In this document: positions 1-55,008 of the stretch, piece after piece | Layout: each line of letters opens with the position of its first letter | Numbering within the stretch: the stretch's first letter is position 1 | Virus record (IMG/VR): IMGVR_UViG_3300045988_134234 | Span: 1-55,008 of that record | Origin: a virus | Lineage: Duplodnaviria > Heunggongvirae > Uroviricota > Caudoviricetes | Reading direction: 5' to 3' (one strand) | DNA length: 55,008 nt | Program-made: the position numbers and the translations under genes | Notes under the pieces: model-generated | Told to the model about the DNA's origin: nothing | Seen by the model: the letters and a program-made list of their open reading frames with translations, nothing else | Database searches by the model: none

Positions 1-248
1 CAAGGCTGGGACGGAAGTCACTGTCGTTCTCAAAATCGGTGGAGCTGCATGACAAAGTCATCGGGCATTATCTGAACATAAAACACTATCAGTAAGTTGG
101 AGTCATTACCAGCCTGCCCGGCGTGAGTGTCCTGTGCGCCTGGCGGCGTTTGCTGTTTTGCTCTTTCCTGATGAGTTCAAATACGCGTGTGAAATCCTTA
201 GAGGACAGGCCGTCAGTGATATATCGCCCGTCCTGATTTTTCAGGAAG

Positions 249-578
249 TCAGGCATTTTCTATCTCCGGTGCCGAGCCAGCGTAATCGCGAATCTTGTTT
301 CTTAGCCATGCTGCGTCAGGAAGAGTTAACGTTGTCCCGACCGGCATTTCTTCCATTTCTGACTCATGGCCCACCAGCACGCGAAATACCCAGCGCAAAT
401 CAGCGTTGCCATAGGCGCGATAGGCCGCCAGGTCTGAGCGATAAACCTCATCAATTTTTATCGTGTACTGGAAATTATCGGAGTGATACTCCGATACCCG
501 CTTGATCATCTCCTGATGGAATAGTGCGCGCAGCACATCGTCTTCAATGCATCGATCGTCGAGCCTGCTGTAACTCAT
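249..578 (-). CDS. hypothetical protein (109 aa)
   Basis: Complete ORF with RBS-like GAGGAA upstream; no recognisable motif. Confidence 0.4.
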   Translation of the reverse strand: MSYSRLDDRCIEDDVLRALFHQEMIKRVSEYHSDNFQYTIKIDEVYRSDLAAYRAYGNADLRWVFRVLVGHESEMEEMPVGTTLTLPDAAWLRNKIRDYAGSAPEIENA

Positions 579-774
579 AACAGTTCCTCACAGTCATAAC
601 CTGGGGGGAACTGTATGCAGGGTGTGAAATGCGAGAAACAGACAGGCCACCAGTTCAGGGGGATGTGGTTCATAAATCCCCTCACTGGTGACAAGTGACT
701 TTCATTAATCTTTATGCGGGGGCCAGCTTCATTGTTTGCTGGCTGTAGATTAAAAATTAAATAGTGTGAATGAC

Positions 775-909
775 ATGGACGTTATTCTCGAATTGTTAAA
801 GCTAATTGTTCTGTTTATGAACGCCTCGTTGACCACGCAAATACTGGCGTTAGTATTTTTGTTACTCTTCTACCTGGTATTAAGGGAGTTAACAAAGCTA
901 CTGAGTTGA
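775..909 (+). CDS. possible small hydrophobic peptide (~44 aa)
   Basis: Short ORF below ORF-track threshold, read by eye (MDVILELLKLIVLF...); approximate coordinates. Confidence 0.2.
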   Translation: MDVILELLKLIVLFMNASLTTQILALVFLLLFYLVLRELTKLLS

Positions 910-51860: not shown

Positions 51861-52232
51861 TCACGCTGCATACCCGTTAGCTGAAACCCAGTTTACGGTC
51901 TGTTCTTTGGCCTGGTCGAGTGTCAAAAATTCACCAATATATTGAGATATGCCTCTCAAAGCATCGATGAACTCCATTTGTGATGATTTAGTAAATGCAC
52001 CACTAAGGAAGTCAGCAACAATTTTAGGCGTTTCTTGTGCCGCCGGTTGCACTTCCTCTTCTTGCTGTTGTGCTGGATTATTCGATGAACCAAGCCCCAG
52101 CTTCATCATCACTTCAACTATCCGCACGCCAATAGTGACACGTTGTACCGCAGTCGCGCTTTTTTGCGCTGACATCAGCTCAGACAGTTCTTTGCCTAAG
52201 CTAAGGCGCTCCGTTACTGATATTTTCACCAC
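51861..52232 (-). CDS. hypothetical protein (123 aa)
   Basis: ORF; overlaps upstream gene end. Confidence 0.4.
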   Translation of the reverse strand: MVKISVTERLSLGKELSELMSAQKSATAVQRVTIGVRIVEVMMKLGLGSSNNPAQQQEEEVQPAAQETPKIVADFLSGAFTKSSQMEFIDALRGISQYIGEFLTLDQAKEQTVNWVSANGYAA

Positions 52233-54178
52233 ACGCCCCCTTGTTGTATCTCTGCCAGAATGTTGATCAGGTGATCGGCTGCCGCACCGACAAGTGACTC
52301 GTTCTCATCATATCGACCTGCGTTGATAAGAACATTAGCTGCCTCCTGAATGCGATCAAACTCCGCTCTAATCACCGTCAAATCACGAGACGTAAACTGC
52401 AACGGCACGGATTTCAGATATTCCAGCGCACTGTCCGCCTCCTGATCAGCCTCACTAACTACTGGCCCATCTGAACCTGTATCAGACTCTTGGGGGGATT
52501 CAGGTTCAGACTCAGGTTCTGGTTCTTGTACAGCTTCCGGTGCCTGATCTAATGTCTGTTCAGCTTCGACTACTTCTGATTGATTCTGAAGCGCGTCATA
52601 GATATCCATTATAAAAAGGTTCTCCCCATCTCCAAGTGGATAAGCGACGTTAGGAAATGCTTTGCGGAAGAGGATTTTTATCTGCGCCTTAAAGGTTTTC
52701 AAGTCGCTTCCAAACAGATCAACATAGCCATCAATATGGTTCGACATACTGGACGCAACCAATTCGCCTGCAATCTCTTTCAATTCATCGTCACCAGGGA
52801 GATATAGCAACTCGTACTGACTGACTTCTTCGTCTGTCAGTTTGCGGTCATACGTAATGATTCCGTGACGAGCATATTCGTAATACGGATCAGCCTGATC
52901 AGGACGGTCAAGTACAGCTTTATTTCCTTCAGGAACCGCACCAACACCCGCCGGGCGAGATTGGAGCGCATAGCGATATTTACCAACTTCCAAGGGATCA
53001 GGATGTGATTCTGGTTGTGGCTCCTGTTCAGGCTGCGGCTGATCAGTTGGCTCAGGCTGGCCCGGCAACACATCCACTTTGTATTGATCAGCATTATGTT
53101 CACGATAGGCTTTAAGTAATTTGGTTGCAGCGTCCGCTGAACTCCCACCTTTAACAGCACTGACATCAATACTGAAATTGCCTTCTGGTGCCTCAATCGT
53201 GACAAAGCTATCACTGCCTGACGTGACATACTTAACTACAGCACCATTATCCAGCGTTGTTTGGCCTTCTGTAGCAAGATTATGTTTTATGTGTCGCAGT
53301 TGATCATTGAAGGCACGCTCTTTAGTTCCTTGGCTCTTAGCTGACAATAAATTATCGCGTTTAGCCTGCAATTCCGCGTTAAGGGCTTTTTGTGCGTCTA
53401 ATTTATTCTGCATATCATTGAGTGTTGAGCGTTTCTCTGCCAGCCCCCGCTGTGCGTCTTCAACCTGCTCAATCAGCACAGAACGTTCTTCTGCCAGCTT
53501 GTCGGCTTCATTGAGATACCCCTCAATATCAGCCTTCATTTTGTCCTGGCGCTCCTTTGCTTTTTTGAATTTTGCACTGTTACGCTCAATGAGGTTAGAA
53601 AGCGCCTGACACACCTGGCTCAGAGATACATCACGCCCACCGATTGGCGCAACAACATGCGTAACGTTTCTTTTGTTAAGAAGAAACTGAAACGCAACCA
53701 GCTCGTCATCCCCTTTAATTCTTGTGCCGTCTGCGGTTGGAGAATGGAAAATTATGCTTGTCGTTTGCCCATCGGTTAGAGGTATTTGTGCTGTTACAAC
53801 AGGGATATTAGCAACCCGGCGCACGCGCCCAATGATTGCCCCACCGATACTATTACGTCCGTCTTCATATTCACCTGCCTCATCCGTACCCGCAGCAATG
53901 TTAGTGCCATTCAGGCCGCGATTAAGCGCCCGGACAAATGCTCGCATTGTTTGCGCTAACCGCAATTTTGTTGTGGTTATAGCTTCGAACATTGCCTCAT
54001 TGGTAGTTACCAAAATTTCGTTGCCCATATAGGCCAGCTCGATATCTTCCAGCGTCGCAGGCTCGATAAGTAAATCATCCTCGGTGATATCTTCCGCCAC
54101 CCAACGATTAGGCGTATATCCAGTGAGCGTATCTGCAAAAGTGGACTGGATATTTATTCGAATAGGTTTCTTTATCAT
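52226..54178 (-). CDS. large acidic coiled-coil protein (DarA-like internal head protein by size and context; speculative)
   Basis: 650 aa; central coiled coil; Pro/Glu-rich linkers (PEPTDQPQPEQEPQPE; EPEPESEPESPQE). Confidence 0.3.
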   Translation of the reverse strand: MIKKPIRINIQSTFADTLTGYTPNRWVAEDITEDDLLIEPATLEDIELAYMGNEILVTTNEAMFEAITTTKLRLAQTMRAFVRALNRGLNGTNIAAGTDEAGEYEDGRNSIGGAIIGRVRRVANIPVVTAQIPLTDGQTTSIIFHSPTADGTRIKGDDELVAFQFLLNKRNVTHVVAPIGGRDVSLSQVCQALSNLIERNSAKFKKAKERQDKMKADIEGYLNEADKLAEERSVLIEQVEDAQRGLAEKRSTLNDMQNKLDAQKALNAELQAKRDNLLSAKSQGTKERAFNDQLRHIKHNLATEGQTTLDNGAVVKYVTSGSDSFVTIEAPEGNFSIDVSAVKGGSSADAATKLLKAYREHNADQYKVDVLPGQPEPTDQPQPEQEPQPESHPDPLEVGKYRYALQSRPAGVGAVPEGNKAVLDRPDQADPYYEYARHGIITYDRKLTDEEVSQYELLYLPGDDELKEIAGELVASSMSNHIDGYVDLFGSDLKTFKAQIKILFRKAFPNVAYPLGDGENLFIMDIYDALQNQSEVVEAEQTLDQAPEAVQEPEPESEPESPQESDTGSDGPVVSEADQEADSALEYLKSVPLQFTSRDLTVIRAEFDRIQEAANVLINAGRYDENESLVGAAADHLINILAEIQQGGVW

Positions 54179-54816
54179 GCATCTTCCTCCAGGCGCGCTA
54201 TTTCTTCTTTCAATACGCGAGTTTTCGCCAGTTCCTGCGCCATCTCGGTTCTAATGATTTCAGTTTCTCTTGTTGCGCGGTCTGAATTACCTTGCACCTG
54301 ATTTAATTTTTCTTTGGCCCTTTCAATATCCTCGCGGATCGCATCGCGAGATTCCTTTGCCTCTGCTAGTTTCTGCGCATTGGACTTAACGCCTTTTATT
54401 TTCTTATTTCCATCATCAATATCTTTCGCCGCACGAGCTAACTTACGCGCCAATGATTTCTGAAATGATGATGCGCCTTTATTAAATAAAGCAGCCAGTG
54501 ATTGCCCTAAAGCCGTCAGCGTTTTAACTGGCTTGAAAGGAACAATTTTTCCGTTCAGTTTTACACCAGAAATATCACCAGTATCATTAACCTGAACGTC
54601 CATCGTCTGCTCATCGATTCCGATAAGGGTAAACGTGCGCGTCATGATCCCGTCTTTCTTCCTGCCATTACTGGCGGGGATCACCCTCGCTATCTTGTAG
54701 CCTCCTTTACCGATTTCTTTGACGAGTTTTGCCAGCCCCTTTTCGTTTAACTCATCATAATTAAGAAGAACATAATTAGACTTATTTGACATTCCAGTCT
54801 CCTTCACACTTTTCAA
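54175..54816 (-). CDS. hypothetical coiled-coil protein (Hdf-like position; speculative)
   Basis: 213 aa; first gene of operon; overlaps next gene start. Confidence 0.3.
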   Translation of the reverse strand: MKSVKETGMSNKSNYVLLNYDELNEKGLAKLVKEIGKGGYKIARVIPASNGRKKDGIMTRTFTLIGIDEQTMDVQVNDTGDISGVKLNGKIVPFKPVKTLTALGQSLAALFNKGASSFQKSLARKLARAAKDIDDGNKKIKGVKSNAQKLAEAKESRDAIREDIERAKEKLNQVQGNSDRATRETEIIRTEMAQELAKTRVLKEEIARLEEDA

Positions 54817-55008
54817 TCATAAACTGGCGTTCTATGCAGTCATTGATAGGGAAAATGCGATAAAGCGGATTCAGGCGGCAATTACCGTTAGTCAATGTGA
54901 CCTTTAGATCCCACTTCGCTGGCTCAAGATATTTCGTGTCGATGAGCAAATATTGTCACGAACGGTGCAATAGTGATCCACACCCAACGCCTGAAATCAG
55001 ATCCAGGG

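Follow-up and report, generated by a model that had tools for sequence, protein, structure and literature searches.

The window analysed in this study, that is, the whole stretch of 55,008 nt at positions 1 to 55,008 of IMG/VR record IMGVR_UViG_3300045988_134234, carries genes for immunity, packaging, anti-restriction and lytic replication as well as accessory genes. It is a 55-kb segment of an Escherichia coli phage-plasmid from the D6 lineage, which has been described before and is sister to phage P1. On the map of the reference genome, Escherichia phage D6 (MF356679 / NC_050154, 91,159 bp), it spans from tail gene 25 via the Dre/rox-C1 immunity centre to lydB. Domains and families were assigned with Pfam and PHROGs, RNAs with Rfam and tRNAs with ARAGORN, while PGAP supplied the annotation of the related plasmid NZ_CP104667.1. 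A set of 70 curated genes or gene fragments was compared by tblastn with D6, P1 and SSU5. Knowledge of D6 was drawn from its GenBank annotation and from papers citing its primary description. The modules on which the comparison with D6 and P1 turns are the following.

2860-4643, minus strand: pmgF-like gene and first immunity-I-like module, 85-97% to D6.
5190-5807, minus strand: ref, RecA-dependent nuclease (Pfam RecA_dep_nuc, E 6e-36), 87% to D6 and 54% at the amino acid level to P1.
5882-17218, plus strand: lambdoid-type early block (Pfam, PHROGs), colinear with D6 76.7-84.9 kb, with cassettes replaced.
17275-19448, plus strand: orf116 (itself on the minus strand), hot, orf130b, humD, phd and doc, 90-100% at the amino acid level to P1 and D6.
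23478-24506, minus strand: Dre tyrosine recombinase (Pfam Phage_integrase), 94% to D6 Dre and 42% to P1 Cre.
24659-24690: rox site TAACTTTAAATAATGCCAATTATTTAAAGTTA, exact over 32 bp, none expected by chance.
24825-25925, plus strand: D6-type C1 repressor, 81% to D6 C1 and 22% to P1 C1.
25963-29224, minus strand: pacB, pacA and lpa, 92%, 74% and 82% to D6 and 56%, 21% and 34% to P1.
36029-43351, minus strand: anti-restriction genes ulx and darB-like, 99% and 98% to D6 and 46% and 43% to P1.
44006-45387, minus strand: second immunity-I-like module with orf70, a Rha-type antirepressor and icd (Pfam), 84% nucleotide identity to P1 48195-48625.
45550-49394, minus strand: repL (lytic replication), pro (head processing) and prt (portal), 92-94% to D6 and 29%, 41% and 49% to P1.
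50384-54952, minus strand: ddrB, ddrA, darA, hdf and a 3' fragment of lydB (54782-54952), 63-93% to D6 and 36-64% to P1.

For the megablast comparison with phage genomes the window was used as two halves, and D6 was by far the best match for both. Window 120-24674 paired with D6 70523-91159 and window 25001-49447 with D6 340-25241; as the two pairs follow in sequence, the window is colinear with D6 across the origin of the D6 record, and the rox site is identical to the junction at that origin. Local blastn, which was used for nucleotide alignment to D6, P1 and NZ_CP104667.1, aligned 79.1% of the window to D6 in 20 high-scoring segment pairs. These ascend in D6 order, except for two cross-matches between the two ant modules. 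A D6 homologue was found for 57 of the 70 genes, and the 55 orthologues used form a single colinear block of uniform orientation. For P1 the count was 33 of 70, and the 32 homologues used fell into 17 strict blocks of mixed orientation. At the DNA level 12.7% of the window aligned to P1 in 13 scattered pieces, many of them inverted, and identity multiplied by aligned fraction was 10.0%. P1, P7, RCS47, SJ46 and other Punavirus-type genomes matched only about 5-15% of each half by megablast, around 7.7-19.4 kb and 30.5-32.5 kb; P7 covered 11% and 6% of the two halves in the same pattern as P1. SSU5 had a homologue, counted only if at least 40% of the gene length was covered, for two of the 70 genes, both accessory.

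The initial annotation had read the sequence as P1-family core functions in a non-P1 order with lambdoid insertions. The P1-like genes that it named (Ref, Hot, HumD, Phd-Doc, PacAB, DarB-like and tRNAs) are all present according to Pfam, PHROGs and tblastn, and the order is indeed not that of P1. A standard P1 arrangement did not survive the synteny analysis: the gene order is the ordinary D6 order. What sets it apart from P1 is a series of ancient inversions and translocations in which conserved modules changed place or orientation. The further suggestion of a distinct P1-related lineage with extensive module exchange was right as to the separation from P1 and the exchange, but the lineage is already known as the D6 group. 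Papers citing it (PMC6799933 and PMC7969092) attribute this group to Gilcrease and Casjens 2018. Pfeifer et al. 2021 divide the P1-like phage-plasmids into P1-g1 and the D6-containing P1-g2, whose mean weighted gene repertoire relatedness (wGRR) to the P1 subgroup is 0.23 (PMC7969092). Lineage and architecture are thus not new. The apparent picture of a scrambled P1 carrying lambda inserts corresponds to how genomes of the D6 lineage are normally organised, and the result prevents a false lead.

Searches of plasmid and complete E. coli genome collections revealed closer relatives than D6, namely NZ_CP104667.1, NZ_LR890273.1, NZ_CP069647.1 and the Escherichia marmotae plasmid NZ_CP056699.1, with 96-99% nucleotide identity over 87-98% of each window half and over 92-98% of the window as a whole. 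NZ_CP104667.1, a circular, non-mobilizable E. coli plasmid of 91.7 kb, aligned colinearly with 94.6% of the window at 96-99% identity (identity multiplied by aligned fraction 92.5%). About a hundred plasmids from E. coli, Shigella and E. marmotae are colinear with the window, and PLSDB holds 95 plasmids with at least 80% coverage of window 30-55 kb. No record identical to the window was found in the collections searched. The D6 sister lineage is common among plasmids of E. coli, Shigella, E. marmotae and Salmonella. A scan of GTDB species representatives with Dre found no close D6-like element, and the IS1/gene-25 junction at the start of the window had no match in the same collection. The Dre scan returned only Cre/Dre-like recombinases of 42-48% identity, which occur widely in Pantoea, Erwinia, Rahnella, Mixta and related genera, both on contigs and on large plasmids.

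The lambdoid-type block consists of about 25 same-strand open reading frames (ORFs), and the families and coordinates reported for it in the initial annotation (phosphatase, Ea22-like and DUF551 at about 6-15 kb) were confirmed.

7658-8173 and 12322-12999, plus strand: two copies of Ea22 (Pfam Ead_Ea22).
9698-10381, plus strand: Ppp, lambda-type phosphatase (Pfam Metallophos), 83% to P1 Ppp.
10486-11481, plus strand: DUF968/PdcB-like protein (Pfam).
14715-15074, plus strand: DUF551 protein (Pfam).

Other members are DUF4406, ClpX zinc-finger, DUF4752, DUF4014, PmgT-like and PmgU-like proteins and phage proteins of unknown function. The block was matched by 494 phage records, mostly Stx-converting (Shiga toxin), lambda, P22-like and other lambdoid phages. 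Similarity is confined to patches of roughly 100-1600 bp with 91-97% identity to the ea / early-left regions of these phages; the patches map to about 7.0-15.1 kb of the window and amount to at most 9% of the block for any one phage. The likeness to the lambdoid ea and early-left regions (lambda ea22, P22 eaA/eaD/eaE, Stx phages) extends to the Ea22, DUF551, DUF4752, DUF4014 and ClpX zinc-finger proteins, the lambda-type Ser/Thr phosphatase and the long same-strand string of small mosaic ORFs. However, the block lies in a myovirus-type phage-plasmid and not beside int/xis, is bracketed by D6-type operator-like sites and includes PdcB-like, PmgT-like and PmgU-like genes of the P1 family. No lambdoid core gene (int/xis, cI/cro, N/Q antitermination or lambda-type structural genes) was seen among the 70 curated genes, and both flanks are P1/D6 genes. 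The word insertion does not suit this block. D6 carries its counterpart at 76.7-84.9 kb, in the same place, and it is therefore not an insertion peculiar to this element. The P1-group elements RCS47 and JL22 also have Ea22, DUF551 or EaA genes in the region matching this part of the window, and the equivalent neighbourhood in P1 holds the pmgL...ppp...pmgS...pmgT-V...hot operons. What lies at 6-15 kb is a resident variable operon that D6 has as well, and not a foreign insertion in a P1 backbone.

The lineage-specific, operator-like motif TGTTAGAAAATNAA, shared by upstream regions, was found at 18 sites in the window (at most 2 mismatches) against 1.9 expected, and none of 100 shuffles reached 18. 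D6 has 19 sites at homologous positions, whereas P1 and SSU5 have three each, which is the background level. Besides ten single sites there are four pairs, the motif often being paired as a palindrome, at 5811-5840, 10414-10443, 29302-29331 and 33260-33289, of which the first two are associated with the block.

5811-5840: perfect palindromic motif pair TGTTAGAAAATCAA, between the divergent ref gene and the block (same site in D6 at 76633).
10414-10443: second block-associated pair, between ppp and the DUF968 gene.

Further sites precede c1 (at 24772 and 24860), lpa (a pair), repL, both c4 loci and pmgS; in P1 these are positions of C1 operators, and TGTTAGAAAATNAA is thus a putative D6-type C1 operator. 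The P1 C1 operator consensus ATTGCTCTAATAAATTT was not enriched in the window (1 site with at most 4 mismatches against 1.5 expected). The box AAGTGACT of the Lpa-dependent P1 late promoters, taken with a -10 element, gave weak enrichment, at 4 sites against 1.4 expected and a shuffle maximum of 5; one perfect AAGTGACT box lies at 693, near gene 26. With motif pairs at its 5' end and in its interior, the block looks like a resident repressor-controlled early operon. The lambda-like block would then belong to the regulon of the phage repressor itself; it would be silent in the plasmid-prophage state and presumably expressed early after induction. A by-product of the analysis is this candidate D6-type C1 operator, which would place an accessory block in the immunity regulon.

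The likeness to D6 covers Dre/rox, the D6-type C1, the operator-like motif at homologous positions and two C4-icd-ant modules. It also covers PacA/PacB, Lpa, DarB/Ulx, DdrB/DdrA/DarA/Hdf, RepL, Pro and Prt in the same order, as well as the ea-like early block at the same position. The differences are a nucleotide identity of only about 87% over 79% of the window, about 12 intervals with exchanged cassettes, the loss of tciA/tciB, the gain of HicAB and of a paralogue of the PacB N-terminal domain, and the presence of IS1 in gene 25 and IS100 in lydB. P1 and P7 (Punavirus, P1-g1) share with the window C1 immunity with C4-icd-ant, Lpa, PacAB, a Cre-family resolvase beside c1, the Dar anti-restriction operons, RepL, phd/doc, hot/humD, tRNAs and a ppp-containing early operon. 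In contrast to them, the window has Dre/rox instead of Cre/loxP, another C1 (22%) and another operator sequence, lacks res/mod, lxc, ssb, kilA, ban and sim, and has a second immunity-I-like module.

Nucleotide homology to D6 is interrupted at 1882-2947, 7062-8173, 8481-9198, 11485-12089, 12354-12690, 13006-13338, 13839-17274, 17745-18288, 19439-20613, 21731-22067, 31364-31696 and 49451-50417. The mosaicism is concentrated in the slots mat-pmgF, the 5.9-17.2 kb early block, hot-humD, doc-isaA, the tRNA/tci region and prt-ddrB. The four closest plasmids share with the window both Tad2-like genes, HicAB and the PacB N-terminal-domain paralogue (98%). The closest plasmid lacks the two insertion sequence (IS) junctions and otherwise differs only at 7062-7707, 12712-13305, 13833-15054 (the DUF551 cassette) and 31577-31865 (tRNA). 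These four differences fall in a subset of the D6-variable slots, which indicates that variation is confined to fixed slots between conserved modules. In the tci slot, tciA/tciB of D6 (D6 6282-6908) are replaced by about 36 bp; the portal-ddrB slot is occupied by HicAB, where D6 has orf23 and a DUF4145 gene.

Protein identity to P1 is bimodal, with core proteins at 21-64% and Ppp, Hot, HumD, Phd and Doc at 83-100%. Nucleotide patches of 82-94% identity to P1 cover ppp, hot, humD-phd-doc, the tRNA region and the second c4 locus. Such a bimodal distribution reads as the signature of recent exchange between the D6 and P1 sub-lineages. Cassettes may be swapped by homologous or short-homology recombination. 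The partners in this exchange are lambdoid prophages for the ea-region genes, P1-group phage-plasmids for ppp, hot, humD, phd/doc, the tRNAs and c4, and other D6-like elements. This slot-wise swapping agrees with the estimate of Pfeifer and Rocha that about 30% of genes were recently exchanged in P1-like elements (PMC10879196). The window thus illustrates a fixed phage-plasmid backbone in which small cassettes from lambdoid prophages and P1 are swapped at a few slots.

Both ends of the window lie in insertion sequences.

4-110: terminal 107 bp of IS1 with the inverted-repeat end at 110, 97.2% to IS1 of P1 (22626-22732).
111-256, minus strand: 5' fragment of tail gene 25, cut by IS1, 92% to D6 gp25 and 60% to P1 (tblastn).
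54953-55008: left end of IS100 (IS21 family), in lydB.

The IS1 end abuts codon ~45 of tail gene 25, the junction corresponding to D6 70523 inside gene 25. The IS100 end abuts the middle of lydB, and D6 homology stops at D6 30876, inside the same gene. The IS100 end matched 1719 plasmid records, 145 of them from Yersinia; in one matching contig (L006) the match lies about 30 bp upstream of an istA annotated as 'IS100 family transposase'. Alignments of D6-like plasmids begin at window 110/111 and stop at 54954, and both junctions are absent from the related plasmids listed as best matches. Two phage genes of the element are thereby disrupted, and the window probably represents a contig whose short-read assembly stopped at IS repeats. 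The D6 interval 30.9-70.5 kb (roughly 36-40 kb) lies wholly outside the window. In D6 this interval contains the Rep_3 replicase gene, glnS, the partition genes (ParM/StbA and ParA-like) and the majority of the genes for head and tail.

Taken jointly, these results are very probably best explained by a contiguous 55-kb segment of a D6-like (P1-g2) element with the ordinary D6 order, slot mosaicism and a repressor-controlled block. An ordinary P1 or P7 (Punavirus) genome is ruled out by the synteny and identity results. Many P1 gene names do apply and the humD-phd-doc, hot, ppp and tRNA patches are close to P1, but the small aligned fraction, the scrambled orientation of the shared genes, the divergent core proteins, the unenriched P1 operator consensus, the low P7 coverage and the missing loxP (not found in the window with up to 3 mismatches allowed) all contradict it. 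The gene-level comparison likewise rules out membership in the SSU5-like phage-plasmids. Here orf116 and orf130b (both similar to SSU5_031) and the antirepressor N-terminal domain have SSU5 homologues, but no packaging, portal, immunity or anti-restriction gene matched, in line with the count of two in 70. Chimeric assembly, or the recent fusion of a P1-like plasmid and a lambdoid prophage into a cointegrate, could draw on the highly similar Stx/lambdoid patches at 7-15 kb and on the terminal IS elements, which are able to mediate cointegration. It is nevertheless extremely improbable: D6 and independently closed circular plasmids (NZ_CP104667.1, NZ_LR890273.1 and others) share the block, its position and both flanks, the lambdoid matches are short patches that form no contiguous prophage, and G+C content is even (0.43-0.54).

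More weight belongs to a reading that accepts the lineage but regards the segment as a defective, IS-bounded remnant, either an IS1/IS100-flanked fragment on another replicon or a plasmid no longer making phage, instead of an intact inducible phage-plasmid. The positions of IS1 and IS100 within gene 25 and lydB and the lack of these junctions in the best-match relatives speak for it. Precedents exist, since gene-loss conversion of P1-like phage-plasmids to plasmids or integrated prophages is documented (PMC10879196) and a truncated D6-like variant, p75, exists in Salmonella (PMC6799933). Yet none of the 70 translated ORFs contains a premature stop, and an intact plasmid that had merely received two simple IS insertions would, when assembled from short reads, give a contig with the same kind of ends. 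A remnant is unlikely, though a good deal less so than the identities discussed above.

Several points tell against the preferred reading of a D6-like segment with a repressor-controlled block. Identity multiplied by aligned fraction to D6 is only 68.9% (for this window only). In virus taxonomy practice the genus-level threshold lies at about 70% identity times coverage. At this similarity the element is not D6 itself but a member of a sub-clade, in which about seven plasmids share 97-99% identity with it. Lineage-defining plasmid genes (Rep_3 replicase, ParM/StbA and glnS) lie at D6 45.8-61.6 kb, beyond the window, and the only replication gene within it is the lytic gene repL. The putative operator is assigned from motif enrichment and position, and a stringent consensus sigma-70 scan (9 of 12 matches) found no promoter at the 5811-5840 or 10414-10443 pairs; a weak TTGATT-17-GATACT was noted by eye at about 5834-5862. 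Finally, each end of the window is a piece of an IS element lying within a phage gene, and the element may be disrupted or defective. The direct observations are those of identity, colinearity, gene content and motif enrichment.

The recombination site reported in the initial annotation as cre/lox proved to be of another kind. The tyrosine recombinase is present, but as Dre with rox and not as Cre with loxP. The string of minus-strand genes to which dre belongs also includes the genes from isaA-like to orf114.

20571-23405, minus strand: isaA-like gene, Tad2-like protein A, dUTPase, orf162 and orf114, 64-87% to D6 (Pfam dUTPase).
21384-22070, minus strand: Tad2-like (DUF2829) protein A, in the dre operon (Pfam Tad2-like, 1e-21).

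Two Rfam C4 antisense RNAs were identified, each upstream of an icd-antirepressor pair.

3237-4163, minus strand: Rha-type antirepressor of module 1 (Pfam Phage_pRha).
4163-4378, minus strand: icd of module 1.
4433-4520, minus strand: C4 antisense RNA of module 1 (Rfam C4, 77 bits).
4565-4643, minus strand: isrK-like RNA of module 1 (Rfam isrK, 63 bits).
45181-45266, minus strand: C4 RNA of module 2 (Rfam), with c4-a1b1 targets at 45335-45387.

The first C4 locus is preceded by a match to isrK, a Salmonella Hfq-binding small RNA family, while the second has the c4-a1b1 target at that place. The first antirepressor module may thus be of another type than the second.

PacB and PacA (25963-28835, minus strand) fall in PHROG terminase families, and Lpa matches Pfam BPP1_LPA (E 4e-50). 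Inside pacA, five TGATCC/GGATCA (Dam) hexamers are clustered within 138 bp at 28386-28523, where about 0.5 GATC is expected. The cluster resembles, also in its position, the hexamer repeats of the P1 pac site, and it is a candidate pac site. The DarB-like protein (2283 aa, 36500-43351, minus strand) combines Pfam N6_Mtase and SNF2 helicase domains. The order ddrB-ddrA-darA-hdf-lydB is the same as in P1, and Pfam ddrB-ParB, DarA_N and DarA_C were found in this region.

The remaining genes and RNAs of the window are listed below.

249-578, minus strand: baseplate gene 26, 92% to D6 gp26 and 43% to P1 (tblastn).
910-1563, minus strand: mat (maturation control), 85% to D6 Mat and 33% to P1 Mat.
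1695-2863, plus strand: first variable slot with two accessory ORFs of 251 and 130 aa (phrog_12786, phrog_13864, unknown function).
17658-17909, plus strand: hot (Pfam DNA_pol3_theta), 93% to P1.
18385-18774, plus strand: humD (Pfam Peptidase_S24), 97% to P1.
18847-19448, plus strand: phd and doc, 100% and 90% to P1.
29332-30287, minus strand: orf127 and Tad2-like protein B (the latter at 29712-30287, Pfam 4e-10).
30742-31943, minus strand: tRNA cluster with a CAT anticodon, Ser, Thr and Asn (ARAGORN, Rfam).
33292-36026, minus strand: pmgS, pmgR-like, orf66, pmgM (VRR-NUC) and orf86, 51-94% to D6, with PmgS 22% and PmgM 56% to P1.
43489-43974, plus strand: lysozyme-like protein (TIGR02594 / baseplate-hub lysozyme domain; phrog_1259), 97% to D6 orf16.
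49557-50271, plus strand: hicA/hicB toxin-antitoxin slot (phrog_497 HicB-like, E 6e-35; HicA and HicB by PGAP in NZ_CP104667.1).

The two accessory ORFs of the first variable slot stand in place of the D6 simB-like gene and orf80, and are also present in NZ_CP104667.1. The orf116-doc region has 93.6% nucleotide identity to P1 87530-88637. HicAB joins phd/doc as a second addiction module of the window. No known defence protein was found when ten accessory ORFs were scanned with PADLOC. Two Tad2-like (DUF2829) proteins are encoded in the window and a third Tad2-like gene lies in the P1-like contig L082; the NZ_CP104667.1 homologue of protein B bears the PGAP name 'Thoeris anti-defense Tad2 family'. 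The anticodons of the tRNA cluster (CAT, Ser, Thr and Asn) resemble those of the D6-like plasmid pYU39_89 of Salmonella Typhimurium ST213, for which Asn, Thr, Ser and Met tRNAs and a second C4/icd/ant module are described (PMC6799933). The CAT tRNA is called Met by ARAGORN, while PGAP calls the corresponding gene of the relative Ile, and P1 has a tRNA-Ile2 CAT gene. NZ_CP104667.1 carries Ile, Ser, Thr, Tyr and Arg tRNAs, the window having Thr/Asn where this relative has Thr/Tyr/Arg.

One further accessory protein is related to the packaging genes.

19484-20590, minus strand: PacB N-terminal-domain paralogue, 368 aa (BLASTP against the window PacB; phrog_5902).

It shows 34% identity to the window PacB over aa 7-263 (E 9e-52), which corresponds to the N-terminal ATPase domain. 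The alignment showed that the Walker A lysine and the Walker B aspartate are lost in all 7 clusters that make up this small family; in place of the nuclease domain stands a conserved C-terminal domain of roughly 100 aa without recognised relatives. The protein is therefore predicted to be an ATPase-dead copy of the PacB ATPase domain. An AlphaFold2 model was of low confidence (mean predicted local distance difference test, pLDDT, 62.5), and Foldseek of this model against PDB returned no match below E 0.35, with only weak TerL-ATPase/helicase resemblances. An identity with IsaB of P1, which is located downstream of isaA across IS1, was rejected, as no similarity was found. The gene is absent at this position from D6 and P1, and a 38% relative lies downstream of ban in the P1-like contig mentioned above. 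Its location after isaA here and after ban there suggests an accessory gene that is mobile between phage-plasmids of the P1-like and D6-like kinds. It is conceivable, if rather doubtful, that it acts as a 'pseudo-terminase' interfering with or redirecting the packaging of competing P1-family elements, e.g. by titrating PacA or the portal; it would in that case be a new type of inter-phage exclusion factor. The main finding does not include these ATPase-dead paralogues of PacB, a small family that may merit a genetic test.

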